From: Bacillota bacterium
GTDB taxonomy: Bacteria > Bacillota > Clostridia > TANB77 > CAG-465
DNA length: 64,000 bases
Assembly: GCA_023410645.1 (NCBI GenBank)
Contig: JAEYPQ010000073.1
Coordinates: forward strand, 10,971 to 74,970
Reading direction: 5' to 3'
Shown: positions 1,148 through 53,726 of the stretch, one piece after another
How positions within the stretch are numbered: position 1 is the first letter of the stretch
Layout: the number at the start of each line of letters is the position of its first letter
Notes under the pieces: model-generated
Told to the model about the DNA's origin: nothing
What the model saw: only the letters and a program-made list of their open reading frames with translations
Database searches by the model: none
Program-made: the position numbers and the translations under genes

Positions 1148-1223
1148 TGGTGTTCCTGGTGCGAATCGAACGCACGACCAACAACTTAGGAGGTTGCTGC
1201 TCTATCCACTGAGCTACAGAAAC
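1148..1223 (-). tRNA. tRNA-Arg (anticodon CCT)
   Basis: The reverse complement folds as a cloverleaf. Acceptor GTTTCTG/CAGGAAC, anticodon loop CTCCTAA, T-loop TTCGATT, encoded CCA. Confidence 0.85.
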
Positions 1224-1393: not shown

Positions 1394-1470
1394 GCACCTG
1401 TAGCTCAACTGGATAGAGTGCCGGACTACGAATCCGTAGGTTGGGGGTTCGAATCCCTTCAGGTGCACCA
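1394..1470 (+). tRNA. tRNA-Arg (anticodon ACG)
   Basis: Acceptor GCACCTG/CAGGTGC, D-arm GCTCAACTGGATAGAGT, anticodon loop CTACGAA, T-arm GGGGGTTCGAATCCCTT, encoded CCA. Confidence 0.9.
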
Positions 1471-1520: not shown

Positions 1521-1571
1521 ACAATTTTGCATATTTTTCTGATTATATAATAGATAATAAATGACATCTGT

Positions 1572-1721
1572 CTAATTGTTATTTATAGTTTGAATAGCAT
1601 CCATAATACCTATTAAATATAAAAGAGATACAAATTCATTATTATTATAAATAAAGTCAATTTCATTTTGCTTAAAGACAGTTTTACTTTCTAAAATTCT
1701 TTTAACAATCAACTCTTCCAT
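1572..1721 (-). CDS. small hypothetical protein (49 aa, MEELIVKRILESKTVFKQNEIDF...)
   Basis: Hand-translated ORF with an AAGGGGGAATAT SD directly upstream of the ATG. It is below the ORF-track size cut-off. Confidence 0.4.
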   Translation of the reverse strand: MEELIVKRILESKTVFKQNEIDFIYNNNEFVSLLYLIGIMDAIQTINNN

Positions 1722-1740
1722 ATATTCCCCCTTCTTGTAC

Positions 1741-1841
1741 TTGACATTTATACAAAAAAGTATATAATGAAAATATATACCTTATGTATATGTTTTAAAT
1801 AGATAGTTTGATTGTTAGCGCAAAAGACTATCTATTTTTTT
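1741..1841 (+). ncRNA. candidate small RNA: orphan promoter followed by an intrinsic terminator
   Basis: TTGACA (1741-1746), a 16-nt spacer, then TATAAT (1763-1768). A 10-bp hairpin AATAGATAGT/ACTATCTATT (1798-1836) with a T7 run follows. No ORF lies in between. Confidence 0.3.
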
Positions 1842-1938
1842 ATGTTCTAATCATATTACATTTGGTAATAAATGTGCTATAATTATAAATTTATTGTACA
1901 ACTCCATCTGGTAAAAATCAACACTTTTTAGAAATAAT

Positions 1939-1976
1939 CGTTCGACATGATGGCAAATTTGACAACATGTCGAACG
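1939..1976 (-). terminator. terminator ending the island's long minus-strand transcription unit
   Basis: Perfect 11-bp stem CGTTCGACATG / CATGTCGAACG immediately after the stop codon at 1977. Confidence 0.6.
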
Positions 1977-2300
1977 CTATTTATATTGTGCTAATTTAGA
2001 TATTATCAAGTCTATTATTCTGCTAATTTTTAATGTTTTTGGATGGGTTAAACCATACTGTTCAATATGATAATTAAGACTTTTTTTTAATGAATTAATT
2101 TCTTCTACAGTATAAAAAAAATCTTTTACATTTACTCTTAAAAATTTAGATACAGTATAAAGTATGTATATACTTGTATTATCTAATTTATTATTTTCTA
2201 GATCTGATAGATGTGAAATAGATATGCCAGTACCTTTATGTATTTGATCAAGCGTATATCCTTTTTCCTCCCTAATAATCTTCATTGCTATTACTATCAT
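1977..2300 (-). CDS. XRE-family helix-turn-helix transcriptional regulator
   Basis: HTH_3 pattern KIIREEKGYTLDQIHKGTGISISHLSDLENNK. I chose the ATG at 2300 because it has an AGAGGAAG SD; the track start at 2366 lacks one. Confidence 0.75.
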   Translation of the reverse strand: MIVIAMKIIREEKGYTLDQIHKGTGISISHLSDLENNKLDNTSIYILYTVSKFLRVNVKDFFYTVEEINSLKKSLNYHIEQYGLTHPKTLKISRIIDLIISKLAQYK

Positions 2301-2400
2301 AATGCTTCCTCTTTCTAATATAATTTCACGACTTATAATTATATTAAAAAAATGTAACATTTTCAATAAAAACTATTAGGATTCACTTTTGTTCCATATA

Positions 2401-3063
2401 TTATAGTTTAGTTAAACCACCCGACCAAACATAATTTCCTTTAGCTGACTTGTACCATTTATTATTATCATTTACACTTTCACCTTCAACAACTCCTACT
2501 GCTTGGAAAATATCATCTTTACGTAATAATCCTGTACCTGATATACTTGATTTAGTGGTTGCTTGACTTCTTACATTAGCCTCTGCTTTATCCACTCTTA
2601 CAGTAAATGTATTTACTTTTATTTTTTCTTCAGTATATGGTAGTATTTTATTTTCTCCTGTAAAATATGGATTAGGATCTACTGATATATTATTTTCTCT
2701 TACTTCAAAATGTAGATGTGCCCCAGTTACAAATCCAGTTGCACCCATATATCCAATTATTTGTCCTTCTTCTACTATATCACCAATGTCAACACAAACT
2801 GTACCAATTTTCATATGTGCATATACCGTACTTATATTTCCACCGTGTTGAATATGTACAAAGTTTCCATAGCTTCCTGATTTATATCCAGATATATTTT
2901 TCTCAACATTAACTACTTTTCCTCTAGCACATGCAATTATATAATCTAATTGATATCCTTGTCTTACAAAGTCAATTCCTATATGTTTGTATGGATTACC
3001 ATTTAAAATTTGATTTCCATAATCTAATGTAATTAATTCTTGTTTACTTTTTAATACATTCAT
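2401..3063 (-). CDS. M23 (LytM/lysostaphin-type) peptidase with C-terminal SH3b-like domain; putative endolysin
   Basis: M23 motifs HIGIDF (HxxxD) and GAHLHFE (HxH). The C-terminal segment resembles SH3b (NKWYKSAKGNYVWSGGL). The ATG at 3063 has a GGAGGT SD 7 nt upstream. It is the last gene of the tail operon. Confidence 0.75.
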   Translation of the reverse strand: MNVLKSKQELITLDYGNQILNGNPYKHIGIDFVRQGYQLDYIIACARGKVVNVEKNISGYKSGSYGNFVHIQHGGNISTVYAHMKIGTVCVDIGDIVEEGQIIGYMGATGFVTGAHLHFEVRENNISVDPNPYFTGENKILPYTEEKIKVNTFTVRVDKAEANVRSQATTKSSISGTGLLRKDDIFQAVGVVEGESVNDNNKWYKSAKGNYVWSGGLTKL

Positions 3064-3187
3064 TATAATTACCTCCATGTTTTCTATTTTTAAAACAATA
3101 TAAAATAGATACTTCTAATTTAATTCTTTTTATTAAGATTTAAGTTAGTTTGCTAAATAAAAATTAAGACAGTTTTATTTTACTGCT

Positions 3188-4819
3188 TTAATTTTTTATA
3201 TCTACAAATTGCAATTCAACATATCTTATTTGACCTTGCGGTTCACCATTTGCACCAGTTTGAGTGTTAGTTATAATACCTTTAAAAACAGTCCATTCAT
3301 TTGGCAGACTATTAAATGCAATTCTATTTGTTGACATTCTATTTAATCTAGCATTATTTATAGCTCCCCACACTATATCAAAAGTAAAAGAGTAACCATG
3401 ATAACCACCACTTTGGTTAAACAATCCTATTTGTATTCCAGGTACACTAGTATTATTACAATTATCCGTTAGTATAGCAAAACATCTGGCATATCTGGTA
3501 TATCCAGTAGGTACTGGTACTGTATTTACACCAGGCTTATAATTATAAAAAATATTACCCAAATCTTTCCACTCTGCCCTTGTAACAGACACTGGTGTAT
3601 CTCCTGCTATGCCAAAAATCGGAAAACTATAAACTATTCTTTCTTTTACTAAATTATATAATTCTGTACCTTTATTAACTGATAAAGCATCTGTTGAACT
3701 TGTACTGTCAAATCTATCCACCACCACAGAGCTTATTGGGACACTATTTTTTGCTTTAATAATGGAATACTGAACTAAATAAGGTTGTAAATTATTGTGA
3801 GCTTGACTACCTCCCGTATAAGTAGTAGAGTATCCCTTGTTTTGCATTCCCAAAAATTCAGATCCAATAGCTGTACCGCTAGCAGCTATATTACCTTCTG
3901 TACCCCTGCTATTGACATTATGGTTATGATTTGGTATTTGATCTACTGTTAAAGTATGTGTTTTAGATCCACCAATTTTACCTAAAGTATTAAATTCGGA
4001 TTGAGAACTATCATATGATACCACAATTTTACCTTTTTTATTTGGGAGATTAAACGTTGTAGAACCATCACCATTTCCATAAGTAGTTCCTATAACATCA
4101 AATAATTCTTTATATTCTGTTCTTGATACAGCTCTACCATCCTCAATAAGCCAATTGCTAGGGGGATTGGCAGAAGGATAATATCCTTCAAATCCAATAG
4201 GAAGTGTATCTGAATTTACAGTACCCTCACTATCAAATTTAATTCCATCAGGACCAAATATAATTAAATATTTTCCATCTTGTACTGTGGTATAAAAATA
4301 TTCTGGAAAATCTAAGTTTATACTAGTTGCAATTGCTAATTTAATATAAAACATTTTTCCTTTTGTAAATCCACTTGCTCCCAAATCTCCTTCAATTAGG
4401 CTTTCAATCGAAAATTCACTCTTATTTTCATTATATGTTATTTTTGATATATCTATATAAAATGGACCATATTCAGTACCCTGATTTTCTCCATATTCAT
4501 TATAAGGAGTTTCACTGGACCAATATTTTATATACTTTACATCGTACTCTCCTAAATATGTTAATTTACCTGTTGCCTTTAATTCAACCTGTTCATCAAC
4601 ATCATTAAGTCTTCTAGATTCAATATTATTAAAATATGGAGTGCGAAAAATTTCAACGTTCAATGGTTTACTACTGCTTGAAGTATTTCCTCTACTATCT
4701 ACTACTGTTACTTTAACATAATCTTTTCCATCTTTCAAACTCTTTATTAAATCATCGCTATTTGAGTAAATTGTATCTGCTAAAAGAGAGTATCCATTTG
4801 GAAGATTTAAACCGCTCAT
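3188..4819 (-). CDS. tail fibre / receptor-binding protein with phage tail-collar domain
   Basis: Central collar-domain signature: NWLIEDGRAVSRTEYKELFDVIGTTYGNGDGSTTFNLPNKKGK, then GGSKTHTLTVDQIPNHNH and GGSQAHNNLQPY. The ATG at 4819 has a GGAGGTG SD and overlaps the upstream stop (TAATG). Confidence 0.75.
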   Translation of the reverse strand: MSGLNLPNGYSLLADTIYSNSDDLIKSLKDGKDYVKVTVVDSRGNTSSSSKPLNVEIFRTPYFNNIESRRLNDVDEQVELKATGKLTYLGEYDVKYIKYWSSETPYNEYGENQGTEYGPFYIDISKITYNENKSEFSIESLIEGDLGASGFTKGKMFYIKLAIATSINLDFPEYFYTTVQDGKYLIIFGPDGIKFDSEGTVNSDTLPIGFEGYYPSANPPSNWLIEDGRAVSRTEYKELFDVIGTTYGNGDGSTTFNLPNKKGKIVVSYDSSQSEFNTLGKIGGSKTHTLTVDQIPNHNHNVNSRGTEGNIAASGTAIGSEFLGMQNKGYSTTYTGGSQAHNNLQPYLVQYSIIKAKNSVPISSVVVDRFDSTSSTDALSVNKGTELYNLVKERIVYSFPIFGIAGDTPVSVTRAEWKDLGNIFYNYKPGVNTVPVPTGYTRYARCFAILTDNCNNTSVPGIQIGLFNQSGGYHGYSFTFDIVWGAINNARLNRMSTNRIAFNSLPNEWTVFKGIITNTQTGANGEPQGQIRYVELQFVDIKN

Positions 4820-5736
4820 TATAGTAACACCTCCTCTATTTTTCCGTTCCACTCTATTATTACTTTTTTTAGAGTGGCTCCGTTCTTGGCTGAAAGACTA
4901 ATATCTTTTATAGCAATATGAGCATCAGACAAATTACCAAATGGGCCAAATCCTGCTACTATATCACTTAATTCATCATCGATACTAGTCCCTCCCCTCA
5001 TACCAAAGATACCAAAAACAGGAGTCTCCGGATTACTATTTTTAATATAGCATGTGCCTTCTTTTGTTGTCATTCCTAGTAATGTTGTGCCAATATAAGT
5101 ACATAGATTAACTCTTATTTTTGCTGAATTATTATTTGGCAGTAGATTATATAAATTATTAGCTAGATTAGCGAGATCTAGAGTAAAATTCTTAGATGTA
5201 ATATCTTCTTCTTTTATACTTTTCCATACATTATTTACATACATATCTAAGTATACTTTATAGTTGTAATTTACATTAGTTATATCAGAAATAGATATAT
5301 TTAAATCATTACCTATATTAAAATCTATATTAGAATTAATAGTACTTGCTATGTAACCTACCGGCGTTGTTACCGTTTTCTCTGTACCACTATCAAATGT
5401 TACTGATCCACCATTTGTACTTTTGAATATAATTCTACAACCATTTATCTGATTACTTCCATATCCTTTATCAAACCAAAAATACTCAGTTTCAGATGGG
5501 AAGTAAGTCACTCCACTTCCTCTATTAGGAGAATTAGCTTTTATTTGCCCACCATAGTTATTTCCTTCAGTATACACATCTGCTATTATGTTATATCCAA
5601 AATAATATCCATTATCTATTGCCCATGTTAATTTCCAACGTATACCTAGTTTAGATCCATCTCTTGTTGTTTCATATTCAACGGTATAGTTTATATGTCC
5701 CCATTGTACTTCTTTACCTTGTACGAATACTTGCAT
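4819..5736 (-). CDS. phage tail/baseplate structural protein (305 aa, unknown family)
   Basis: It lies between the Tal-like and fibre genes, has an AGGAGGGA SD, and is translationally coupled to the next gene. Confidence 0.5.
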   Translation of the reverse strand: MQVFVQGKEVQWGHINYTVEYETTRDGSKLGIRWKLTWAIDNGYYFGYNIIADVYTEGNNYGGQIKANSPNRGSGVTYFPSETEYFWFDKGYGSNQINGCRIIFKSTNGGSVTFDSGTEKTVTTPVGYIASTINSNIDFNIGNDLNISISDITNVNYNYKVYLDMYVNNVWKSIKEEDITSKNFTLDLANLANNLYNLLPNNNSAKIRVNLCTYIGTTLLGMTTKEGTCYIKNSNPETPVFGIFGMRGGTSIDDELSDIVAGFGPFGNLSDAHIAIKDISLSAKNGATLKKVIIEWNGKIEEVLL

Positions 5737-5748
5737 TACTTATCCCTC

Positions 5749-7623
5749 CTATCCATCTTTATCATAAGATATTCCAACTCTTCCATCTTGTAATACTGTA
5801 AATCTCATTTTTCCTACATTTAAACGTTCGAAAAATGTTGCTCTATCAAATGTGGAATTCTCACCATTAAATTCTGCTTTTACTTTGCCTGTCTCTCTAT
5901 TTTTTATTACTGTTCCCTCAGCACCAAAGATTGACTTAGTATTTTTTATTATACTTTCTACTTCTAGACCATTATATCCAAAAGAGTAATTCATGCCAAC
6001 TACTTCTCCTGGGTAACTCTGATATCCTAATTTTGAACCTTTATTAAACATACAATCACTAAATAAAACATAATTATTATCACTAAAAAGTTCAATTTTA
6101 ACTTGTGATGTTGGGCTGTTCACTGAAAATTCCACCTCATTAAAAGTATTAGGTTCAATTTCAAGATTATATATTTGTTCTGTTCCGCTTGTTATTTTAA
6201 CCTTTACATTTGCAAGCTCTAATTTATATATAATACAGCTAAATGTATAATCTGTATTCTCCTTTATTTTTATAGGGGCAAATTGTACACTACCATTATT
6301 TATTTTAATTGCAGATTTAGAAATTGTATTATCCATAATTTCTTTATTTTGTTCTATGGCTACATTACCACTTTTTATATTGCCAACATACTCTAAACGT
6401 AAAGTGCTGTCTTGTATAAGATTAAGTCCACCCGCTTGCTGTAAATTTATACTTACATTTTCAACATTTTGTGTCATTTGAATTATCTGACTGCTATTTT
6501 CATTTGTTTTACTCGCAACTGATTGTATTATTTGATCTTGTTTATTTACTATGATTTCTGTTCTTTTAGCAATTTCTAACGCAGTTACAGGATTCTCATA
6601 TTCAATGCTAGCTTTGGTTATACTAGGTGCTTCAAATCCTATTTCTACCCCCTCAATGTTAATCCTTAATATTATTGTATTTACATTTTCACCAGATTTA
6701 TTTTTTATGGTTACGATATCACCAACTTCAAGATATGGATATAAACAATTTTTCAGTGTCATGCCAGAATACCCAAATCCTTTTGCTTTGTTATATATGG
6801 AATTTATAAGCTTTTGCCTTTTTTCTTGTGTATATGCAAATGGATTATCAGTAATCATTAAATAATTCTCACCATATTCTGCAATACCCTCTTCCCATCT
6901 AATAGTAACATTTTCACCTTCGAATTCTGAATTTTCAATACCTACTATTGTTATAGGATTTATATCTTTTTTATTTTCAAATTCATCATAATCATTTATA
7001 TCTATAACTACATCTGTTGTATTTGCAAATACCAATTTCAGTTTGTCATTTACTATTTTTGCAAAGTTGCAACTTATACCTGCAATAGCGCTTACTACAT
7101 GCCCAAATTGAGATCCTTCAAATTGATTACTATCAACAATAAATTCTGAATTATCAAAGTCAATAGAATTGAGTTCAACACCACATTTAATACAACATTC
7201 TTCAAGTACATCTGAAGCTGTGACATTACCACTTGCATAGTCTAAATCTGATTGATAGGTGTTTGCAAACTTTAAGCCATAATCATATGCGGTTACTTTT
7301 ACGCTTTCTTTTGTATCACTCTCTTCTACATTATAAACAATAAAAGTTCCATAATCTATTGCTTCCCATGTACCATCTTCAAGTCTATACTCTTTGTATG
7401 CTCTAAATTCTTTTTGTCTGAAATCAAAATTAATATCTTCATAATCAAACTCAAGTCTCTTCATTATAAAATTTTGTAAGAAATTACCATCTTTATAACA
7501 ATCATCATAAAGATTAAACCACAGATATATCCTATCTGTGGCTCCTTTTAATATAATATAATCTCTTTCTACTACACTATCTTTTTTTAGTGCACTTTTT
7601 AAAGCAGTAGAAACATTTTTCAT
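5749..7623 (-). CDS. tail-associated protein (Tal / prophage tail endopeptidase-like minor structural protein)
   Basis: 624 aa, sitting after the tape measure and a Dit-like gene as in siphovirus tail modules. Its start overlaps the upstream stop (TAATG). The assignment rests on size and position only. Confidence 0.5.
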   Translation of the reverse strand: MKNVSTALKSALKKDSVVERDYIILKGATDRIYLWFNLYDDCYKDGNFLQNFIMKRLEFDYEDINFDFRQKEFRAYKEYRLEDGTWEAIDYGTFIVYNVEESDTKESVKVTAYDYGLKFANTYQSDLDYASGNVTASDVLEECCIKCGVELNSIDFDNSEFIVDSNQFEGSQFGHVVSAIAGISCNFAKIVNDKLKLVFANTTDVVIDINDYDEFENKKDINPITIVGIENSEFEGENVTIRWEEGIAEYGENYLMITDNPFAYTQEKRQKLINSIYNKAKGFGYSGMTLKNCLYPYLEVGDIVTIKNKSGENVNTIILRINIEGVEIGFEAPSITKASIEYENPVTALEIAKRTEIIVNKQDQIIQSVASKTNENSSQIIQMTQNVENVSINLQQAGGLNLIQDSTLRLEYVGNIKSGNVAIEQNKEIMDNTISKSAIKINNGSVQFAPIKIKENTDYTFSCIIYKLELANVKVKITSGTEQIYNLEIEPNTFNEVEFSVNSPTSQVKIELFSDNNYVLFSDCMFNKGSKLGYQSYPGEVVGMNYSFGYNGLEVESIIKNTKSIFGAEGTVIKNRETGKVKAEFNGENSTFDRATFFERLNVGKMRFTVLQDGRVGISYDKDG

Positions 7624-7997
7624 TATTCTACCACCTCACTACTCTTTTCCAATACAACATCAAATTCAGCATATCTTTCTCCATATTTACTATAAACTAA
7701 ATTTTTTGCTCCCTTTGTTACTATAAAATTATATTTTTTATAACTTCTTGTATTTGGATTCCAAACTTCATATTCACCATCAATAAAATTATCATTGTAT
7801 TCTTTTATTGTTTCTCCATCCAATTGTCCCAGCTTTATTCCTATTGTTATAGTATTATAAGAAGCATAAATCACTTTTATACTTCCATCTGCTTTTATAG
7901 ATTTATTTAAAACAACTGGTTGTTCATCAAATTCATAGCCTTCACTTAAAATATTATTAAATTTATATATTTCTTTTTTTATTAAATAATCTTCCAT
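7623..7997 (-). CDS. short distal-tail-protein-like structural protein
   Basis: It sits immediately after the tape measure gene. The ATG at 7997 is preceded by GGAGGTG. The functional call is positional only. Confidence 0.35.
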   Translation of the reverse strand: MEDYLIKKEIYKFNNILSEGYEFDEQPVVLNKSIKADGSIKVIYASYNTITIGIKLGQLDGETIKEYNDNFIDGEYEVWNPNTRSYKKYNFIVTKGAKNLVYSKYGERYAEFDVVLEKSSEVVE

Positions 7998-8006
7998 ACG
8001 CACCTC

Positions 8007-9641
8007 CTAGAAGCCATACTGTAATTCTAATTTTTTATTTACTTTATTTGTACTTTTTGCAACTTTCTCACCATCTAATTCAACGGTAGAATTTACTACT
8101 ATTTCCTTATTATCACCAATTGATTGTAATGTTGCTTGTGTTTTATCTTCTTTTTCCACTTGCATTGTTGCTGTAGAAGTTAAATTAGCACTTAATTTAC
8201 CTGTTTCTAGCTCTATTGTTTTTTGCATATCGTTAAATACACCATCTAGATTATCGCTAAACCCTTCTCCTAAGCCTAGTGCTAAATATTTACCAACTTC
8301 ATCTCTGAATTTCTTAGAAGGTGAATGTATTCCAAAAAAACCTTTTATTCCATTGATAATTGTACTACACCATTCCTTCATTTTATTAGCTAGCCATGTG
8401 ATTGAACCACTTAGACCATTCCATATTCCTTCCACAATTCCTTTACCTATATCATACATACTTGTAAATATTAAACCAAATGCATTAACTATACACATTA
8501 ATATACTTGGTATCTGTCCGATTAATGAAGGAATTGCATTAACTAGTCCAGCAATTAACATGAATATAATTTGTACACCCATAGCTACTATTTTAGGTAA
8601 ATTGTTATTAAATGCATCAAATAATTTGTTAATAATTGTAGGAACCTTTTCAATTAATTGAGGTAAAGCTTCAATAATTCCCATAATTAAAGCTAATAGA
8701 ATTTCAATTCCTGTATCTATAATTAAATCTATATTATTTATTAGTGTTTCAACTATTATTAATACACAATCTACCATTGCAGGAATCAGTGTAGGTAGTA
8801 TTTGTGCTATACCTTGTATTAAAGCCATTAATATTTGAATACCTGCATTTAATATAATTGGTAAATTCTCAACTATAGTATTAATTATATTATTTATGCA
8901 TGATACAATTACAGGAATAATATTTGGTAAGCTTAATACTATACCATTTAGCAATTCAACTAATATATTTATGCCTAGTTCAACTATTTGGGGTAATAAT
9001 TCAAAGATACCATTAAGTAAAGTTGTAATTATATTTAATGCTGTTTGAGTTATTAGTGGCAAGTTACTGGTTATAGAATTAATAAAACTTAATACTATTT
9101 GTATTGCCATATTAATTACTTGAGGTAACATATCAGATGCCTGTTGTAACAATAAAACTAAACTTTCGCTAAGTTTTTGGCTAAATGCTTCTATTCCACC
9201 AGTTTCAAATGCTCCTTGTAGTCCTGCTATTGTATCATTCAAAAGCGGGAAAACATTATTTACAAGTGCACCACTTATTCCTTCTGTTAAACTACCTGTT
9301 AATGTATTAAAATTATCTTTAAGGGTAGTCATTTGTTCTCCAACAGCCGGACTTTGCTCTTGCATATATTGAAAAAACTGTTTGCCGACATCTACAGCTT
9401 TAGATATTGATTTTCCAACCGCATCAACTGCCATCTTTGCACCTTTAAAAGCTATATTTCCAATATTTCCAAATCCACTTAAAGCTGTTTTTGTAATGTC
9501 CATAACCCCACTAAAAGCTGTATTTGTTATCTCTAATAACCCACTTAAGGCCGTATTTGCTATAGATGCTATTTTACTAAATGAACTTTTAATTTCTGGC
9601 TCGTTAATCTGTATATCTATTATAATTATATTATCATCCAT
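8007..9641 (-). CDS. tail tape measure protein
   Basis: 544 aa with a long series of hydrophobic helical repeats (LPQVINMAIQIV..., LPNIIPVIVS..., LPTLIPAMVD..., LPQLIEKVPT...) and N-terminal ALSG/AFSG repeats. It holds the canonical position between the chaperone and baseplate genes. Confidence 0.8.
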   Translation of the reverse strand: MDDNIIIIDIQINEPEIKSSFSKIASIANTALSGLLEITNTAFSGVMDITKTALSGFGNIGNIAFKGAKMAVDAVGKSISKAVDVGKQFFQYMQEQSPAVGEQMTTLKDNFNTLTGSLTEGISGALVNNVFPLLNDTIAGLQGAFETGGIEAFSQKLSESLVLLLQQASDMLPQVINMAIQIVLSFINSITSNLPLITQTALNIITTLLNGIFELLPQIVELGINILVELLNGIVLSLPNIIPVIVSCINNIINTIVENLPIILNAGIQILMALIQGIAQILPTLIPAMVDCVLIIVETLINNIDLIIDTGIEILLALIMGIIEALPQLIEKVPTIINKLFDAFNNNLPKIVAMGVQIIFMLIAGLVNAIPSLIGQIPSILMCIVNAFGLIFTSMYDIGKGIVEGIWNGLSGSITWLANKMKEWCSTIINGIKGFFGIHSPSKKFRDEVGKYLALGLGEGFSDNLDGVFNDMQKTIELETGKLSANLTSTATMQVEKEDKTQATLQSIGDNKEIVVNSTVELDGEKVAKSTNKVNKKLELQYGF

Positions 9642-9685
9642 TTAGAAACTCCTTTCCAGTCAGGCTCATAGGCTCAATTTAAAGA

Positions 9686-9817
9686 CTAATTTTTAATTAA
9701 TATTTCAATTTCTTTTTTACAATTTTTACATATAAAAAAAATACCTTTAGATTCAGCACCTTTTTCATACTTTAATATTTTCTTATCACAATATGGACAA
9801 ATATACCATTTTCTCAT
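9686..9817 (-). CDS. Com-like zinc-ribbon protein (43 aa)
   Basis: MRKWYICPYCDKKILKYEKGAESKGIFFICKNCKKEIEI carries two CxxC pairs. An AGGTGA SD precedes the ATG at 9817. The upstream part of the track ORF is hydrophobic and lacks an SD. Confidence 0.55.
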   Translation of the reverse strand: MRKWYICPYCDKKILKYEKGAESKGIFFICKNCKKEIEILIKN

Positions 9818-10005
9818 GTCATCACCTGCACTTTTAATTGATTCCAAAATTATATTAGAACTTACAAGTGTAATAAAAAAGATATATATATTGAAAAGAC
9901 GCCACATGCATATAGCATTGACGTTCCTTTCTTTTATAAATCATTTTTCATAGTTATACAATTTGTAATAATCAAATTAATTTGAGACCCTTACAAAATT
10001 CAGTA

Positions 10006-10581
10006 TTACCAAAAAACACTTCCAAAATCTTTTTCTTTCTCTTCGACTGTACGTATATCAGGTAATGCATATATTTTTTTTAACTTTTTATAATGATTTT
10101 TTGTATCTTTATCTTTAATTTTTGATAAATCTATTGATCTATATCCCATTATTTTAGCTATTTGAGTATCTTCATTTAAACCATTAAACATTGCTTTAAA
10201 TTCCCACCAGTGCAAATGTTTAACTTTATTCAAGTTTTTTTGATACTGTTCTAAAAAAGCATCAAAAATATAGTCTGCATCAAATTCATAGCTATAAATT
10301 CTTTTTGCTTTATCTTCAGTACTGTTAGAATTAATTAATTCTTCCTTTTGTTCCTTCCCGCATCGGTAAAACCAAAGCATATCTTGTATAGCAATATTTA
10401 TATCTTTAATTTTTGATAAATCATAATAGAGATTAAGAGCAAGTAGAACTTTATCTTTTTCAGACACTTTATTATCTTGCATAAGTAGTTCAAATTTAAT
10501 AGAAGTTCGAAAGTCCGTATTTATTTTGAATCCACTTTGAGTTGTTTCAGGTAGTTTGTCTAATAATATATTAGTTAACAT
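10006..10581 (-). CDS. phage Gp15-like protein (Listeria phage A118-type tail-module protein)
   Basis: 191 aa, lying between the chaperone and tape measure genes. Size, position and the N-terminal LLDKLPE..I.TDFR pattern recall the Gp15 family. This is from memory, not from a search. Confidence 0.45.
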   Translation of the reverse strand: MLTNILLDKLPETTQSGFKINTDFRTSIKFELLMQDNKVSEKDKVLLALNLYYDLSKIKDINIAIQDMLWFYRCGKEQKEELINSNSTEDKAKRIYSYEFDADYIFDAFLEQYQKNLNKVKHLHWWEFKAMFNGLNEDTQIAKIMGYRSIDLSKIKDKDTKNHYKKLKKIYALPDIRTVEEKEKDFGSVFW

Positions 10582-10584
10582 ATA

Positions 10585-10938
10585 CTACTTCCTTTTTTGT
10601 ACTCTTCTTTGTTCTCTGTTGGGTTGATATCTGTCAAAAGCATTTTCTAATCCTTTTTGTTGTTCTACTTTTTCTTTAACTATATCTTCAAATGCACTTA
10701 TACAATCTTTCAAGTTGTTCTTTTCTCCAAAAACGTTAAGTGATGTACCTTTACCAAAAACATTGTCAAAAAATTCTTTTATTATCTTACATTCTACTTT
10801 TATAGTTTCAGATAATTTCATATCCTTTTTTTCATATGACTCAGCCTTTTCTTTTACTTTTTGTGCTTCATTTTCAAAAATTTCAACAAAATCAGCATCT
10901 AAAAAATCAAAATCAACTTCTACTCCTCTTATTTTCAT
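10585..10938 (-). CDS. tail assembly chaperone-like protein
   Basis: A 117-aa acidic protein immediately downstream of the major tail gene. The call is positional. Confidence 0.4.
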   Translation of the reverse strand: MKIRGVEVDFDFLDADFVEIFENEAQKVKEKAESYEKKDMKLSETIKVECKIIKEFFDNVFGKGTSLNVFGEKNNLKDCISAFEDIVKEKVEQQKGLENAFDRYQPNREQRRVQKRK

Positions 10939-10941
10939 CTA

Positions 10942-11439
10942 TTATTCCTCCTCTTCTGCTCCTTCTGTAAATGTTGCAGATTGCCAATTATCAGTTGTAC
11001 TAGCTATACCTTCAATTATATCTCCTTGTGCTGCAAAAGTACCGCTATATTGGTAAGCATCTGTTCCGTCACCATCAGCATCTGGAATTATTGAATATGA
11101 TCTTTTTTTAGCTTTATATGCTCCAGCTGTTGTAGTTTCTTCATTGAAGTTAACTGTTATTATTTCAACAATTTTGCCAGTTAGTTCTTTATCATGTACT
11201 TCTACTATCACATCTTGAACAGTATTATCTGTCATTCTATCGAAATTATATGCTATTTCTGTTGCATATCCTGTAACATCTTTTCTTTGTGTCTTTTCGT
11301 CAACATATCTTCTTTCATAAGTACTTGAATTTAAACTTTTTCCACTTTCAGTAAATCCTGTCATTCTAGCATAAGTATTAGTGCTATCGGCAGTTTTCAT
11401 AAAATTTACAATATCAGCTCTGTTATACAATTTTCCCAT
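10942..11439 (-). CDS. major tail protein (non-contractile, TP901-1/phi13-like)
   Basis: 165 aa with a beta-rich composition and an acidic C-terminal tail, sitting in front of the chaperone and tape measure genes. The ATG at 11439 has a GGGGG SD 8 nt upstream. Confidence 0.6.
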   Translation of the reverse strand: MGKLYNRADIVNFMKTADSTNTYARMTGFTESGKSLNSSTYERRYVDEKTQRKDVTGYATEIAYNFDRMTDNTVQDVIVEVHDKELTGKIVEIITVNFNEETTTAGAYKAKKRSYSIIPDADGDGTDAYQYSGTFAAQGDIIEGIASTTDNWQSATFTEGAEEEE

Positions 11440-11440
11440 T

Positions 11441-11905
11441 TTAATTTCCCCCTTCAAAGTAAATAACTTGCATTTCTATTATGTAATTAGAAACTGTATC
11501 TGTTTTTTGCAAAATATATCCTAGTTTTATACATTCAATACTTTGCACACCAGGCATAACAGGCAAGTTATTTGACTTATTTTGTGTTTCAATCCATTTA
11601 CTGAAATCTTCAAAAAATTTACTATTAGCAAGATTTTGAAGATTAGAAAATGGAGCATTAACAACAAAATCAAATGCAATCTGCCTTAAACTACTACCAT
11701 CTGCATATCGCTTGTAAATCAGATCAGATGGTTTTATATCTATAGTAAATCCCTCTATAATCTCATCTACATAATCAACATTTATTATTCCATTTTCAAG
11801 AAATGGACATGTTGATATAAATTCTTTAATTAATTCTATCTTTGATTTAGCCATTTTAATATACTCCTCTACATCTTTGCAAATATCTTTTCTTCTCTTT
11901 ACCAT
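11441..11905 (-). CDS. tail terminator / head-tail-joining-like protein (first gene of the tail operon)
   Basis: It sits directly upstream of the major tail gene. An alternative start at 11854 (MAKSKIELIKEF) has a GAGGAG SD. Confidence 0.4.
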   Translation of the reverse strand: MVKRRKDICKDVEEYIKMAKSKIELIKEFISTCPFLENGIINVDYVDEIIEGFTIDIKPSDLIYKRYADGSSLRQIAFDFVVNAPFSNLQNLANSKFFEDFSKWIETQNKSNNLPVMPGVQSIECIKLGYILQKTDTVSNYIIEMQVIYFEGGN

Positions 11906-12441
11906 ATTCTTCTATCCTATTATCTTGCACTCTTTTATGCTAATAGTAATTGAAATTAGTATTTAATAAAGTTTTATCACCTAAAGCCAAAATAAAAACT
12001 GCTATCTTTAGTGGGTATTAATTTAAATTATACTAATATTTAGAATAAGGTACACGTATTTAATAGAATGATTGTTAGATAAGCTTTAATCTTTTATATT
12101 ATCAACTTATCTTATACTTTAAAGAATTAATACTTTTTCTACAATTCCCTTAACCAGGTTAGTTCACAATTGATTAGTAACTTATCTACTTATATATTCC
12201 TTACACATAAGCAAGTTCTAAAAAAAATATTGTTTTTCTAAATTTTGTATCATATCCTTTATATGTTGCATGATTTTCTTGCCTATATTCTATATTTTGA
12301 GACTCCAAACTTTGCATTGAAACTTTTTTAATTTACCAGTATATATTTGATAAATTAAAAATATTAGCTTCTTTAACGTCTGGCTTAAAAGACAAAAAGC
12401 GAATTCATAAAAACGCTTGATAACTAAATTTATCTTTTAAT

Positions 12442-12855
12442 TTAATTTTTATCTTTTACTTGTATTAATATATCTTTTAATTTATCAGGATAAGGAACAC
12501 CTAACTTAGTTGTATTTTCCAATAATGATATACCCTCATTAGCTATATAGAAAAGTATTGATAAATTCCTTAACATTTCTATATTAAGTACTTGATCTAA
12601 TTTATTACATAGACCAATTAGTCCAAAAATTAAGAACTTTTTAAATATCCCTTTATATCCAACTTCAGAATTTAAATTCTTATTTATAAAAATCGCCACT
12701 GCTAAACCAGTTATGAAGTCGGTAAATGTAAATGCAACTAGTAAACTCATAGACACATCCCATCCTCCTAAATAACTAGATATTATGGTACATAATGTTG
12801 CAAATACCAAACAAATGGATTGTCCTATTTCACTTAAATTAGTTAATCTAAACAT
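12442..12855 (-). CDS. holin, TcdE/LL-H (toxin secretion / phage lysis) family
   Basis: Pattern GGWDVSMSLLVAFTFTDFITGLAVA...GYKGIFKKFLIF...ANEGISLLENTTKLGVPYP with three TM segments. The ATG at 12855 lies 5 nt after an AAGGGGGTGA SD. Confidence 0.75.
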   Translation of the reverse strand: MFRLTNLSEIGQSICLVFATLCTIISSYLGGWDVSMSLLVAFTFTDFITGLAVAIFINKNLNSEVGYKGIFKKFLIFGLIGLCNKLDQVLNIEMLRNLSILFYIANEGISLLENTTKLGVPYPDKLKDILIQVKDKN

Positions 12856-13049
12856 CTTTATCACCCCCTTTAGTATTTAATTGAAAAAACACTGTGTTTT
12901 TACAGCATTTTTATATTTTTTATCATGGATTTTTATTAATTAATTACTGTATGATTTAATTTTTTTATTGTATATATCTATTGCTATTATACATTATAGC
13001 ATGGTTTTTCTTTAAAATATTGTTCTTTTATTCCCAGTTTCTTCCCGAT

Positions 13050-13682
13050 TTAATAATTTGTTCTAATTATTCCTAAGATTTTTTTCTTTATATTAGATAA
13101 TTTATTTTGTAATCTTTTTTGAGTTAAATCCTTATTGAAGTTTTTATTGTATGATATTTCTATATCATGCCAATCCATGTTTTCATAATACTTACATTCT
13201 ACTAGAAATACATCTTTTGGACTTAACGTACTAAATGCTACTTCTAACTTTCTTACTTCAATCTCTAAAGCAATTCTTTCACTCTTTGCTATTTTTATTA
13301 GCTCCTCAGCTTGTCTATGATTTAATTCATTTCTTAATGCTTGACTTTCAACTGGACTATATATTCTATTTTTTGACTTAGGCATACCAAATGTAGATTC
13401 TGAAACATTGGTAAAAATATTCTCATTTTCTTCTAAGGCTCTATTCCATACATCTATTCGCTCTGACAATGTGGCAATCTTTGCTTTATTATTCATATAA
13501 TTTTTTAACATATGATTTATATCTTTCATATCCAGTAATGCATCTGCACATGGTGTACTACTTTCCCTTTTCATTTTTCTTGGTTCCTTACAAAATTTAC
13601 AATAACTATAACTTTCACACATACCACCATTGCATTTTAGTGCTTCTTTTTCTAATTTCTCTTGTATTTCTTCCCTATTCAT
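13050..13682 (-). CDS. phage late-gene activator, sigma region-4-like (ArpU/RinA/DUF1492-type), with Cys-rich N-terminus
   Basis: FGMPKSKNRIYSPVESQALR...LSPKDVFLVECKYYENMDWHDIEISYN...TQKRLQNKL resembles sigma-like phage activators. The N-terminus carries the cysteines C..C....C..C. Confidence 0.5.
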   Translation of the reverse strand: MNREEIQEKLEKEALKCNGGMCESYSYCKFCKEPRKMKRESSTPCADALLDMKDINHMLKNYMNNKAKIATLSERIDVWNRALEENENIFTNVSESTFGMPKSKNRIYSPVESQALRNELNHRQAEELIKIAKSERIALEIEVRKLEVAFSTLSPKDVFLVECKYYENMDWHDIEISYNKNFNKDLTQKRLQNKLSNIKKKILGIIRTNY

Positions 13683-13700
13683 ATATTCATTTTACTCCTT

Positions 13701-13892
13701 CTACTTTTTTATATTTTTTTGGCAATCCATATATTTCTCATATGTATAACTTAATAATTGAATAAATTCTTTTGTAAGCATTTTATCTTTATTTTTATAA
13801 AATATTTTCTGTATTAGGTTGTGTATCTCTATATAATTACTTTGATGTATTTTTTCATTTTCAATATAATTTTTAGTTTTATTTTTTGTCAT
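13701..13892 (-). CDS. hypothetical phage early protein (63 aa)
   Basis: ORF with an AAGGTGA SD 8 nt upstream, lying in the operon. Confidence 0.45.
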   Translation of the reverse strand: MTKNKTKNYIENEKIHQSNYIEIHNLIQKIFYKNKDKMLTKEFIQLLSYTYEKYMDCQKNIKK

Positions 13893-13900
13893 TGTCTAAT

Positions 13901-14200
13901 TCACCTTCTCACATAATCTAATATTTCTTCTGTTTTATTTAATCTGGATTTCTGAACTTTTTTATCTGATTTTAGATTTGTATATTTTTCCTGTAATTTT
14001 CTTCTGCATCTACTTACACTTTCAAATGTTGGCAATCCCAAAAACTTGTATTCCCTAAATATATATCCAAAATCATTTATTGATAGGCCAGGATTTAACT
14101 TATATATCACTTCCACATATAGTAAATGATCATCCAATCTTGCTAATTTATTCTGTTCAAGTACATCTTTCACAAATTTCTCAATATTATACATTTTCAT
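13901..14200 (-). CDS. hypothetical phage early protein
   Basis: ORF-track entry 13901..14209. The ATG at 14200 is best spaced from the GGTGG SD. No motif recognised. Confidence 0.5.
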   Translation of the reverse strand: MKMYNIEKFVKDVLEQNKLARLDDHLLYVEVIYKLNPGLSINDFGYIFREYKFLGLPTFESVSRCRRKLQEKYTNLKSDKKVQKSRLNKTEEILDYVRR

Positions 14201-14264
14201 ATATTTCATCCACCTTTTATCTTTTATTTATCTAATTTATAAAATTCTTATTTGTTAAATCAAT

Positions 14265-14405
14265 TTAATTTACTCTACTTTTTTTATTAATTATCGCCTG
14301 TGCCTGTGCCTCTTGTGTGTAATCAAGTTCGTTATTTTCTTTAAACATTTTGCTGGCTAATGCTATCAATAGTACTATTGCTGATATGGTTAATATCTTT
14401 TTCAT
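14265..14405 (-). CDS. small membrane-anchored protein (46 aa, MKKILTISAIVLLIALASKMF...)
   Basis: Hand-translated ORF with an AGAGAGGG SD. It is the first ORF downstream of the minus-strand switch promoter. Confidence 0.4.
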   Translation of the reverse strand: MKKILTISAIVLLIALASKMFKENNELDYTQEAQAQAIINKKSRVN

Positions 14406-14635
14406 TTTTACCCTCTCTTTTTTATAAAATTTTAGTATATTTATAGTTCTTTTTCTTCACACGATAATGTGAGAATAAAAAAAATTAAATTTATATGTTA
14501 ACGCATTTTCTTTACAAAATATTTTTATTATTATAAAGTTAAGATCCTTTGTATTCCAACAGAATATGATATTTTATCTGCGATTCATTATTATATATTT
14601 ATTATTTCCGCCTCCTTTATTTTCTTACTACGATA

Positions 14636-14664
14636 ATTATATATTATTTTTTCTATCGTGTCAA
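14636..14664 (-). promoter_or_regulatory. consensus sigma-A-type promoter (lytic-side, leftward) with overlapping operator
   Basis: The minus strand reads TTGACA (14664-14659), a 17-nt spacer, then TATAAT (14641-14636). ACGATA half-sites abut the -35 and follow the -10. Confidence 0.65.
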
Positions 14665-14712
14665 GTATAATTGTTTATTTTTTATCGTATTACGTTTATT
14701 ATGTAATTTTTA

Positions 14713-14741
14713 TTGACACGATAATATATGTGTGCTATAAT
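14713..14741 (+). promoter_or_regulatory. consensus sigma-A-type promoter of the repressor gene with overlapping operator
   Basis: TTGACA (14713-14718), a 17-nt spacer, then TATAAT (14736-14741). The same TTGACACGATA module occurs in the divergent promoter. Confidence 0.65.
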
Positions 14742-14780
14742 TTTATTATTAAAAAATTTTTTGAAAATAAGGAGAAAAAA

Positions 14781-15149
14781 ATGAATGAATTTGATAGAGA
14801 ATTAATAGGAAAAAGACTAAAGTCAAGAAGGGAACTTGCAGGACTAACTCAAGAACAAGTTGGAGAAAAAGTGGGCAAAACCTTTGCTACTGTGGCGAAA
14901 TATGAAAGTGGAGAAATTAAAAATATAGATATTATGGTTATTAGTATAATTGCCGATATAACTAATACTAATATTGACTATTTATTGCTAAAAAGTGATA
15001 GCCCAGATCCTAACAATAATTTTAGAAATTATAAGCATTTAAATAATTCTTTAATAGGAAGGGTATCTAAAAAGATGGAAAGCATGTCAGATAGTGAATT
15101 AGAAATGTTAGACAGAATAATAGATGCTCTTATAAATGAAAAAAAATAA
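14781..15149 (+). CDS. cI/ImmR-like XRE-family repressor
   Basis: LIGKRLKSRRELAGLTQEQVGEKVGKTFATVAKYESGE is a classic HTH_3 pattern. The ATG at 14781 follows AAGGAGAAAAAA. The track start at 14658 would lie inside the promoter region. Confidence 0.8.
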   Translation: MNEFDRELIGKRLKSRRELAGLTQEQVGEKVGKTFATVAKYESGEIKNIDIMVISIIADITNTNIDYLLLKSDSPDPNNNFRNYKHLNNSLIGRVSKKMESMSDSELEMLDRIIDALINEKK

Positions 15150-15166
15150 AATGGAGATTGTGTGTT

Positions 15167-15580
15167 ATGAAAAAATTTTATGATTATATACAAAAGGAAA
15201 ATATTATATTTAAAGAACAATATATTGATGAAAATATAAAAGGATTATGTATAAGATTACCTAATAGTAAAACTGCAATTGTTTTAAATGATAATTTAAT
15301 AGAAAGTAACATTGAAAAAAATTGTGTTCTTGCTGAAGAACTGGGGCATTATTATTGCGATGCTTTATACTCACCTTTTTGTGAGGATCAGACAATTATA
15401 GATAGAAATGAGTATAGGGCAAAAAAGTGGGCCTTTAAATCTATTATTGGAAATAAATTACACAATAACATTGGAAGATATAAAAATATGCTTAAATATG
15501 AGATTGCAGAGGAAATTGGCGTAACAGAAGATATGCTTGATATGGCATATGATTATTATAAAAGAAATGAAGTTATTTAA
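15167..15580 (+). CDS. ImmA/IrrE-family zinc metallopeptidase (anti-repressor protease)
   Basis: HExxH motif in LAEELGHYYCD. It lies immediately downstream of the repressor, as in ImmR-ImmA pairs. Confidence 0.7.
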   Translation: MKKFYDYIQKENIIFKEQYIDENIKGLCIRLPNSKTAIVLNDNLIESNIEKNCVLAEELGHYYCDALYSPFCEDQTIIDRNEYRAKKWAFKSIIGNKLHNNIGRYKNMLKYEIAEEIGVTEDMLDMAYDYYKRNEVI

Positions 15581-15672
15581 TTATATTTAGTAAATCAAAT
15601 AACTTCAAAAAATAAATAATTCTATAATTTCTTTGAAAAGTAAAAAATATTTCTAAATATTTTAATTCCTTT

Positions 15673-15698: not shown

Positions 15699-16073
15699 TC
15701 ATATTGTGACTAATCCACTTCTCTTCATCCTTACAACGTCTTCTATTATAAATTCAACTATATAGTCAAAAATCTTATCTATCTCAAATTTCTCAATAAA
15801 GTACAGATCATCTTTTGAAAATACATAATTATAATCATATATTATTTGGTTACAAATGTTTAATATTAAATTATATAATTTTTCTTTCACAACCGTTTCC
15901 AATAAAGAATCATATCTACCATTATTATCTTTTTTTATATATTCAACTAAATTAAATTTATGGTATATCTCATTTGTTTTATTCTTTATTTCTTTATAAT
16001 AGTTATATCTTCTTTTATTTATTATATTAATTATCTTATCAAAGAATTTATTAAACTGTTTATTTTTTTTCAT
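15699..16073 (-). CDS. hypothetical protein (124 aa)
   Basis: ORF track only; no motif recognised. Confidence 0.45.
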   Translation of the reverse strand: MKKNKQFNKFFDKIINIINKRRYNYYKEIKNKTNEIYHKFNLVEYIKKDNNGRYDSLLETVVKEKLYNLILNICNQIIYDYNYVFSKDDLYFIEKFEIDKIFDYIVEFIIEDVVRMKRSGLVTI

Positions 16074-16211
16074 TATCTTCTCCTGTAAATTGATTTATTG
16101 TTTATAAAATATGTACAATAGGTCATTATATTTAATCATAAAATAATGTATTATATTATATAATGTGGTTTCATTTTTATATAATAAATACATAAATGAA
16201 AGGATTTAATT

Positions 16212-22606: not shown

Positions 22607-22608
22607 TT

Positions 22609-23511: not shown

Positions 23512-23518
23512 CTACTTT

Positions 23519-25890: not shown

Positions 25891-25891
25891 T

Positions 25892-27673: not shown

Positions 27674-27683
27674 ATTTTTCTCC

Positions 27684-43298: not shown

Positions 43299-43309
43299 TA
43301 TTTCACTTC

Positions 43310-51757: not shown

Positions 51758-51809
51758 TTATGAGATGTGATATAAGTATAAAGTACATTAAGAAAAGAGG
51801 TAGTAATAA

Positions 51810-53726
<1,917 letters not shown>

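Follow-up and report, generated by a model that had tools for sequence, protein, structure and literature searches.

The DNA considered here is a 64,000-nucleotide stretch (hereafter the window) from an uncultured member of the Bacillota (class Clostridia), corresponding to positions 10,971 to 74,970 of contig JAEYPQ010000073.1 in GenBank assembly GCA_023410645.1. The source contig of the window, L014, comes from the Logan assembly of SRR13358440 and is 77 kb long; all coordinates are positions in the window, with gene starts refined by gene calls on that contig. Positions 1977-15580 are occupied by a 13.6-kb phage-derived cluster in which the tail, lysis, and early genes lie on the minus strand. 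A sequence-only reading of the window had proposed this cluster as a candidate tailocin of the non-contractile F type, consisting of a siphovirus-type tail module with its own genetic switch and lysis genes and neither a head nor an integrase.

Gene content of the cluster

The tail module runs without interruption from the tail terminator to a collar-domain fibre (Table 1), in agreement with the sequence-only reading, and most of its members were recognised through Pfam, PHROG, the PDB, and Foldseek, with the distal tail protein (Dit) placed by position; the PHROG tail protein call for the module reaches 1e-30. The terminator, whose Shine-Dalgarno (SD) sequence and start are shared with the related locus L001 (metagenome-assembled genome OH_SBrB_46), is in all phage relatives the last connector-type gene before the tube gene, and apart from its match to PHROG_3266 no solved or curated relative was found in the PDB or NCBIfam. 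The sole PDB match of the tube protein, of modest score, is the tube of the Clostridium histolyticum tailocin (11OK; phmmer 4.7e-10, profile 1.4e-11, nearly full length). This protein is 82-84% identical in L001 (82% by tblastn, 84% by MAFFT) and belongs to a family that is well populated in metagenomes. Two candidate assembly chaperones follow, together with a short zinc-ribbon open reading frame (ORF) that is absent from L001 and present in some of the phage relatives. The tape measure protein also matches its counterpart in phage 80alpha weakly (7e-4). A shortened tape measure was considered as a signature of domestication and rejected, as the phage relatives span about 400-925 aa.

In the distal part of the module, the Dit-like label of the sequence-only reading is upheld by position and conservation, with a gene of 124-136 aa at this place in seven phage loci, L001, and the short contig L018 (the relatives with a matchable distal tail), but family support is missing, no match having been found in Pfam, PHROG, NCBIfam, or the PDB. 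The 305-aa protein, equally devoid of matches in these four collections, is encoded next after the hub in L001, L018, and the intact phage L015, at 59-71% identity; the Dit candidate, the terminator, and the 305-aa protein are all kept at the same positions in intact phages. The AlphaFold2 model of the hub (predicted local distance difference test, pLDDT, 73) is predicted to adopt the gp27/Mu gp44/VgrG fold over its first ~350 residues, for which Foldseek returned a Mu-type hub (3cdd, 4e-12) as the best match alongside the hubs of diffocin, R2 pyocin, and T5, VgrG, and T4 gp27, and its C-terminal beta domain, as modelled, resembles a carbohydrate-binding module (CBM; 8xmz). The collar region of the fibre matches a long tail fibre in the PDB (8kec, 8e-10). 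Comparison of three fibre variants shows a conserved N-terminal portion of ~295 residues, a hypervariable insert at approximately aa 296-345, and a variable C-terminus, a localised variability of the kind expected for a specificity determinant, which makes this protein a candidate receptor-binding protein.

Two lysis genes accompany the tail. The holin, which had been read as TcdE-type, is confirmed as a phage holin (PF05105 and PHROG_199), is 88% identical in L001, and is followed by a spacer in which no Rfam family and no ORF longer than 38 aa was found; L001 has a spacer of comparable length, with conservation confined to its two ends. The lysin occupies the same position in L001 and L018, and its earlier description as an M23/SH3 protein is retained for the M23 domain but not for the SH3 domain, which Pfam did not detect at E<=0.01.

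The absence of a head, inferred earlier from the ORFs themselves, was corroborated by family searches, in which no capsid, portal, terminase, scaffold, connector, integrase, excisionase, replication, or sheath family was recognised in any ORF of the window (Pfam, PHROG, and NCBIfam), and by tblastn, in which 107 head-region ORFs from the closest phage relatives gave zero matches in the 64 kb. No phage genes were found in the ~4 kb of contig to the left of the window. A single marginal match to TerL (E 0.008), lying on dnaA and its spacer, was rejected as spurious. The claim that no sheath is present likewise stands: every ORF in 2401-11854 could be accounted for, and the same three collections returned no sheath or contractile baseplate.

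The position of the cluster between tRNA-Arg(ACG) and the housekeeping genes tadA and cwlD was also borne out, by ARAGORN and Rfam for the tRNA and by the deaminase and Amidase_3 families for the two genes. No compositional island is present because G+C is 24-32% along the whole window. No att-like repeat flanks the cluster, and an integration scar at tRNA-Arg was rejected, given that no repeat there involves the tRNA. All 17 co-oriented genes have an ATG start and a purine-rich SD sequence, and genes of the tail block are separated by gaps of 1-12 nt or overlap by 1 nt, the exception being the optional zinc-ribbon ORF and its flanks; the good SD sites noted previously are genuine. Refinement placed the starts of the terminator at 11854, the tube at 11439, the fibre at 4819, the holin at 12855, the lysin at 3063, the terminal regulator at 2300, and the XRE repressor at 14781, the last from the L014 gene call and the L001 orthologue.

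Table 1. Features of the tail cluster and its surroundings, in window coordinates; dN/dS (ratio of nonsynonymous to synonymous substitution rates) was calculated between the window and L001 by the Nei-Gojobori method
Feature	Coordinates	Strand	dN/dS	Evidence and remarks
tRNA-Arg(CCT)	1148-1223			Rfam/ARAGORN; same side of cluster as tRNA-Arg(ACG)
tRNA-Arg(ACG)	1394-1470	+		Boundary marker; ARAGORN and Rfam; same neighbour in L001
Terminal HTH_3 + Spo0E-like regulator (107 aa)	1977-2300	-		Pfam HTH_3 2e-7, SpoOE-like 4e-7
M23 peptidase, endolysin candidate (220 aa)	2401-3063	-	0.21	Pfam M23 9e-24; PHROG endolysin families 2e-20
Collar-domain tail fibre, receptor-binding protein candidate (543 aa)	3188-4819	-	0.27	Pfam Collar 1e-17, Gp10_C 8e-10
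Conserved tail protein (305 aa), baseplate or fibre adaptor candidate	4819-5736	-	0.26	Follows hub
Baseplate hub/Tal (624 aa)	5749-7623	-	0.16	PHROG_6616 tail protein; C-terminal CBM-like domain
Distal tail protein (Dit) candidate (124 aa)	7623-7997	-	0.16	Position between tape measure and hub
Tape measure protein (544 aa)	8007-9641	-		PHROG tape measure families to 5e-51
Zinc-ribbon ORF (43 aa; CPYC...CKNC), accessory	9686-9817	-		Weak zinc-ribbon Pfam matches
Phage_Gp15-family protein, second chaperone candidate	10006-10581	-	0.12	Pfam PF06854 2.6e-50; PHROG_706
DUF6673 protein, tail assembly chaperone candidate	10585-10938	-	0.11	Pfam 5e-29; fixed between tube and Gp15 in all relatives
Tail tube (major tail) protein (165 aa)	10942-11439	-	0.20	PHROG_3099; phmmer match to PDB 11OK
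Tail terminator/tail completion protein (137 aa)	11441-11854	-		PHROG_3266 tail completion 1.5e-30
Non-coding spacer (587 nt)	11855-12441	-		Between holin and terminator gene
Holin (Phage_holin_4_1), first late gene	12442-12855	-	0.08 (0.075)	Pfam PF05105 4e-34; PHROG_199 holin
A-tract/hairpin/U-tract, terminator-like	12885-12912	-		Between conserved block and holin
Extended -10 block (TGcTATAATgTATAAT...), candidate late promoter and cognate site of reg210	12974-13004	-		Conserved
reg210, late regulator	13050-13682	-	0.11	N-terminal 4-Cys cluster and sigma-70 region-4-like helical domain
Three small early ORFs (46, 99, 63 aa)	13701-14405	-		ORF list and gene calls; 46-aa one with hydrophobic N-terminus
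Switch region	14406-14780	.		Divergent consensus promoters; operator-like ACACGATAAT repeats across both -35 boxes
XRE/HTH_3 repressor candidate (122 aa)	14781-15149	+		Pfam HTH_3 1.4e-12; PHROG transcriptional regulator/repressor
ImmA/IrrE-like (M78) anti-repressor candidate (137 aa)	15167-15580	+	0.05 (0.054)	PHROG_87 metallo-protease 6e-15
tadA	16700-17155		0.10	Deaminase; opposite flank of cluster
cwlD	17148-17888		0.14	Amidase_3; opposite flank of cluster
dnaA	47540-48958	+		Core chromosome

Relatives and selective constraint

Relatives were collected by scanning one genome per species with the tube protein, which yielded 13 loci, all from uncultured Clostridia. In 12 of the 13, TerL, portal, minor capsid protein 2, scaffold, and capsid genes lie directly upstream of the terminator gene, although the truncated locus L007 shows the capsid gene alone; where these phages hold their head module, the window element has only a regulator and the holin. 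The thirteenth locus, L001, matches the window in having a headless cluster, with its genes arranged identically from the ImmA-like gene to the terminal regulator and again placed between cwlD/tadA and tRNA-Arg(ACG). It belongs to a different species, because its CwlD and TadA proteins are only ~80% identical to those of the window. L018 represents a third variant with the same order of Dit, hub, 305-aa protein, fibre, and M23 genes.

The intact temperate siphophages of gut Clostridia (L002-L013, L015, and L019) have tail modules that are homologous to that of the window gene for gene, with identities of 43-55% for the terminator, 40-67% for the tube, 40-60% for DUF6673, 49-62% for Gp15, and up to 64% for the hub. 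They differ from the element in possessing terminase, SPP1-type portal, minor capsid protein 2, scaffold, capsid, and connector genes upstream, together with amidase or CHAP lysins, none of which occur in the window. The next relatives of the hub (64%, then about 45% identical) are found in complete phages with capsid genes, and the loci of more distant hub homologues are also phages with terminase, portal, and capsid genes. Near-identical DNA was not found among GenBank phages. The deletion boundary is exact: all genes from the terminator to the distal end of the tail remain, and none of the head or connector genes does. Judged from these comparisons, a small clade nested within an ordinary temperate siphophage family shares the headless state as a derived feature.

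The ORFs of the window and of L001 agree in length and are free of frameshifts, with the exception of the tape measure, which differs in length. The dN/dS values of element genes range from 0.05 to 0.27 and those of the flanking genes from 0.10 to 0.14 (Table 1); for the terminator, a value of 0.51 was inflated by a mis-called start, the conserved SD sequence and ATG placing the true start at 11854. A decaying remnant is ruled out as the main explanation because the ORFs are intact and purifying selection is evident across two species. Frameshifts, low conservation, and a recent deletion with heads retained in related strains, any of which the sequence-only reading had named as evidence against a tailocin, were looked for and not observed.

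Regulatory regions and chromosomal neighbourhood

The regulatory end of the cluster contains the predicted pair of an XRE repressor (HTH_3 1.4e-12; 79% identical in L001) and an ImmA-like protein (PHROG_87 6e-15; Pfam M78 at 6e-4, below the cut-off) on the plus strand. Between this pair and the early genes lie two divergent sigma-70 promoters, both perfect 12/12 matches to the consensus (14664 to 14636 on the minus strand and 14713 to 14741 on the plus strand), which confirms the divergent promoters described earlier. Copies of ACACGATAAT, some degenerate, overlap both -35 boxes; the motif has 8 matches in the locus against 1.4 expected, a number reached by no shuffle, and clusters also in the orthologous switch of L001, with three sites within 75 bp. 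On this basis, the repeats are candidate operators. The ImmA-like protein reads EELGH in place of the HEXXH zinc motif in both species. However, an inactivating lesion was rejected, as most members of the subfamily have EEXXH and no gene of the cluster is under stronger constraint: an exhaustive search yielded an alignment of 151 sequences (the query and 150 cluster representatives), 109 of which carry EEXXH and 35 of which carry H at that position. In this alignment, EEXXH appears as a trait of an ImmA-like subfamily of short proteins with a non-canonical motif.

The early region was expected to contain four small ORFs, and three of at least 40 aa were found; none has a family match in Pfam, PHROG, or NCBIfam scans, and the 63-aa one alone is conserved in L001. 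The L001 locus has, at its positions 4691-5827, an extra HTH_3/CI-like regulator (207 aa) and a 157-aa ORF between a conserved 124-aa gene and the ImmA-like gene. Both are missing from the window, while L001 lacks the 46-aa and 99-aa ORFs and the 43-aa zinc ribbon. Given these gains and losses, the regulatory periphery is fluid and the core is fixed. At the opposite end, the terminal XRE regulator of the sequence-only reading is present and, at 90% identity to L001, is the most conserved protein of the region. It stands between the lysin and tRNA-Arg and carries a domain of the Spo0E-like sporulation phosphatase family, and its membership of the element is uncertain.

The sigma-like late activator postulated from the sequence corresponds to reg210 and gained support from structure prediction. 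Its four cysteines (C22, C28, C31, and C45) are invariant and its C-terminal part is helical; PHROG_36 (2e-5) and, weakly, DUF722 are matched. The AlphaFold2 model (pLDDT 76) resembles phage sigma-70 region 4, DUF1492, and transcriptional activator proteins in BFVD (Foldseek E 7e-4, target-normalised TM score 0.73), and against solved structures no significant fold match was obtained, those to sigma WhiG being non-significant. Five homologues of reg210 were found among 5.8 billion proteins. In phages L020 and L021, the homologue is the last early gene before the terminase, and in phage L022 it closes the early module where the contig ends; reg210 homologues therefore occupy the late-activator position in real phages.

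Downstream of reg210 lies a conserved extended -10 block that is unique in the window and is identical over 29 nt in phage L020. Its 19-nt core, ATGYTATAATRTATAATAG, is a perfect extended -10 element with a second TATAAT. This site occurs once per locus, 26-61 nt downstream of the gene, in five of five loci with a reg210 homologue (L001 8424-8442, L020 10689-10707, L021 5576-5594, and L022 10688-10706, in addition to the window) and in none of the 17 other loci. When a shared motif was sought upstream of the tail-operon spacer, none rose above the shuffled controls, which only the block downstream of reg210 exceeded. A terminator-like hairpin follows the site, ahead of the first late gene, in three of the four loci in which the sequence continues (the window, L001, and L021). 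The RNA folds at -8.8 kcal/mol in the window and at -11.8 kcal/mol in L001 (z -3.8) with stems of different sequence, and in L021 a canonical terminator stands at the equivalent place. By analogy, the order of regulator, site, hairpin, and holin recalls lambda Q, PR', and tR', with the holin first. Regulator and site are paired in every such locus, and reg210 would work through either activation or antitermination.

The remainder of the window is core chromosome, including genes for an FtsA-family protein, dnaA, dnaN, gyrB, and mnmG; the last four (47540-53726 on the plus strand and 41409-43325 on the minus strand) indicate that the window spans the chromosomal replication origin region. The position of dnaA places the element ~32 kb from it. 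Between the element and tadA, positions 15699-16562 hold a 124-aa ORF without a family and a divergent HTH_3 regulator (116 aa), both kept in L001, which may or may not belong to the island. An operon at 21887-28106 on the minus strand encodes a HerA/TraG-like P-loop ATPase, a ParA/MinD-like protein, a T2SSE-type secretion ATPase, and several proteins without a family, and may represent a Tad/Flp-type pilus or a related secretion system. To the left of the window (L014 17407-21362), past the two tRNA-Arg genes and a 202-aa ORF, a Ddl-like ligase, a VanY carboxypeptidase, and acyltransferase/alanine racemase domains form a cluster resembling a van-type cell-wall remodelling locus. Apart from tRNAs, no non-coding RNA was detected in the Rfam scan of the window.

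Comparison with known systems, proposed function, and alternatives

F-type tailocins have been described in Pseudomonas, an alphaproteobacterium, Listeria (monocin), Enterococcus (efagin), and C. histolyticum (bioRxiv 10.64898/2026.06.17.733002). Literature surveys of clostridial tailocins were found to report R-type elements only, and the sequence-only reading, which named R-type diffocins as the known elements of Clostridia, had regarded an F-type element there as notable. This premise is now out of date, as particles of the C. histolyticum F-type tailocin have been imaged in commercial collagenase (preprint of September 2026; bioRxiv 10.64898/2026.06.17.733002), and after recent papers an F-type element in this class is no surprise to specialists. 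The C. histolyticum locus (NCTC503_02168-02181) is also a headless, sheathless chromosomal cluster with terminator, tube, tape measure, Dit, hub, fibre, and lysis genes, and its tube (PDB 11OK) is distantly homologous to that of the window, the tube being the protein that was compared. It differs in carrying a duplicated tube gene (TTP*) where the window, with a single tube gene, has the DUF6673 and Gp15 genes, and in its host, which for the window element is an uncultured organism.

Monocin, encoded by the Ftb genes of Listeria monocytogenes (Lee 2016; Gu 2025), shares the architecture and size class of the element (11.6 kb versus 13.6 kb), and both are non-contractile and of Gram-positive origin. 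In both, a repressor and a metalloprotease anti-repressor are followed by the terminator, the tube, two chaperones, the tape measure, Dit, the hub, fibres, and lysis genes; in the monocin switch, a CI-like repressor is cleaved by the metalloprotease MpaR downstream of RecA. The resemblance to monocin and its A118-like tail module suggested earlier thus holds for the architecture but not for the structural proteins, among which sequence homology was undetectable. Sequence and profile searches of the PDB with the tube, terminator, Dit, hub, tape measure, 305-aa protein, and fibre recovered no monocin chain at a significant level (FtbJ reached E 0.13), with no significant similarity to FtbF, FtbG, FtbK, or FtbL, and the tube_lmo2291 model scored the window below its cut-off. 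The window Dit, at 124 aa, could not accommodate a galectin domain, and the fibre has a collar/Gp10_C make-up in contrast to FtbN/O/P; of the lysis genes, the holin gene is placed upstream of the tail genes and the lysin gene encodes an M23 peptidase. Membership of the monocin lineage was rejected on these grounds, and the element appears from its sequences to be an independent domestication from another phage lineage.

Efagin of Enterococcus faecalis (ef1276-ef1293; 14.6 kb) is comparable by description as a chromosomally fixed, conserved, non-contractile phage-tail-like inhibitor, which recognises cell-wall polysaccharide through a variable C-terminal binding protein; it differs in genus and phage ancestry, and is intrinsic to one species, whereas the window element occurs in at least two. 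Diffocin, the R-type element of Clostridioides difficile, is likewise a clostridial phage-tail-like bacteriocin with a related hub fold (8v3w_H is among the hub matches), but it is contractile, with sheath and complex baseplate genes that the window element lacks.

Taken together, the locus lacks the head, packaging, replication, and integration modules of an intact prophage, as well as the sheath and contractile baseplate of an R-type tailocin. Every property of an F-type tailocin that can be examined in sequence was found, namely a tail set free of sheath, head, integration, and replication genes, its own switch and lysis genes, and a fixed, conserved locus, in support of the tailocin proposed by the sequence-only reading. 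The element is therefore regarded with good, though not complete, confidence as a maintained and functional tail-particle element, probably a domesticated F-type tailocin, for which a bactericidal role is, by analogy with characterised systems, most likely.

The following course of events can be envisaged for such a tailocin. In the resting state, the XRE repressor would bind ACACGATAAT-type repeats across both divergent promoters. Upon stress, probably DNA damage, the co-transcribed ImmA-like protein would inactivate the repressor, as in ImmR/ImmA and the CI-like/MpaR pair of monocin, allowing transcription of the early operon and synthesis of reg210. This regulator would then act at the extended -10 block just downstream to turn on the late genes, through activation or through read-through of the hairpin, in the order holin, terminator, tube, two chaperones, tape measure, Dit, hub, 305-aa protein, fibre, and M23 lysin. 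A tube of ~60-80 nm, its length set by the 544-aa tape measure, would be built on the hub with collar fibres and capped by the terminator, after which the holin and the M23 lysin would lyse the producer and release the particles. The fibre and the CBM-like domain of the hub may then attach the particles to cell-wall glycans of related strains, which would be killed.

Several points weigh against the interpretation as a tailocin. The absence of head genes refers to the 64-kb window and ~4 kb to its left, and such genes could lie elsewhere in the genome. The tape measure is 407 aa in L001 versus 544 aa in the window and is conserved in its C-terminal ~100 aa alone, the Dit assignment is positional (plus conservation), and the ImmA-like protein, having EEXXH rather than HEXXH, is a candidate protease. 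The hairpin between the candidate late promoter and the holin, together with the 587-nt spacer before the tail genes, makes the transcription plan uncertain. In addition, the organism is uncultured, the window proteins are singletons at 90% identity, and the dS of some tail genes is 0.4-0.5 versus ~1.0-1.2 for the flanks. The latter may reflect possible later exchange between lineages instead of strict vertical descent, with the constraint clear either way.

Among the alternatives, the cluster might be a supplier of tails that join DNA-filled capsids encoded elsewhere, by a split prophage or a capsid-forming satellite, to give a transducing or infectious particle. This possibility draws on the extent of genome inspected (about 68 kb), on the retention of a terminator/tail-completion protein that normally docks to a head connector, and on the co-occurrence in the sample of L018 of phages with the reg210-type regulator and site, which makes co-induction conceivable. 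It is nevertheless rather improbable: connector, adaptor, and stopper genes are absent beside the terminator, the switch, holin, and lysin are the element's own, as in stand-alone tailocins, the headless layout is fixed in two species, and the papers searched describe no tail-only helper locus of this kind. A comparably low probability is assigned to a non-bactericidal tail-like particle or lysis module, for example one that lyses part of the population in a programmed way so that cell contents are released, mediates adhesion, or connects to sporulation control. The holin as the first late gene, 587 nt from the tail genes, the Spo0E-like domain of the terminal regulator, and the description in the literature of the F-type killing mechanism in general as unclear are compatible with such a role, but all tail structural genes, including those of the hub and fibre, are under purifying selection, the hypervariability of the fibre fits target recognition, and the characterised headless siphovirus-type clusters tested for activity (monocin and efagin) all inhibit related strains. 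Least probable of all is a cryptic prophage remnant, a tail and lysis fragment that lost its head and replication genes, lacks a selected particle function, and survives fortuitously or only on account of its regulators or lysis genes; its clear phage ancestry (tail module 50-67% identical to complete prophages), the strong divergence and unequal lengths of the tape measure in the two species, and the non-conservation of accessory ORFs (46 aa, 99 aa, and zinc ribbon) are outweighed by the integrity of 13 of 13 core genes in two species that share only ~80% identity in their flanking housekeeping proteins, by structural-gene dN/dS of 0.11-0.27 with no frameshifts, by the exact boundary at which the terminator was kept and head and connector genes were all lost, and by the preserved SD sequences and gene packing.

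With regard to regulation of the presumed tailocin, an unlikely but consequential proposal is that the late switch constitutes a lambda Q-like module (regulator, extended -10 with tandem TATAAT, terminator, and holin) common to the element and co-occurring temperate phages. If this were true, a superinfecting or co-resident phage of the reg210 type would trans-activate the late operon of the element, or the reverse, so that phage infection would lead to premature lysis and tailocin release, an abortive-infection-like defence combined with a weapon; alternatively, the element would be a phage-coordinated partner, like monocin and phi10403S. It would also imply a new class of Gram-positive late regulator, with a 4-Cys cluster and a sigma-region-4-like domain, acting by antitermination.

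Read as a probable tailocin, the element extends the small group of Gram-positive F-type tailocins (monocin, efagin, and the C. histolyticum element) by a lineage that was domesticated independently, and indicates that uncultured Clostridia of more than one species maintain such elements at a fixed site close to the replication origin region. It may further be viewed as a natural experiment in the conversion of a siphophage into a weapon, in which the terminator and distal genes, as well as the late regulator and its cis site, were kept, and every head and connector gene, replication, and integration were lost. Monocin and diffocin have already been used as retargetable chassis, and this compact 13.6-kb cassette, with its separable fibre and CBM-like hub domain, could likewise serve as a chassis for retargetable anti-clostridial particles. 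The module of regulator, site, and terminator, in turn, offers a testable handle on late-gene control in phages of Clostridia.

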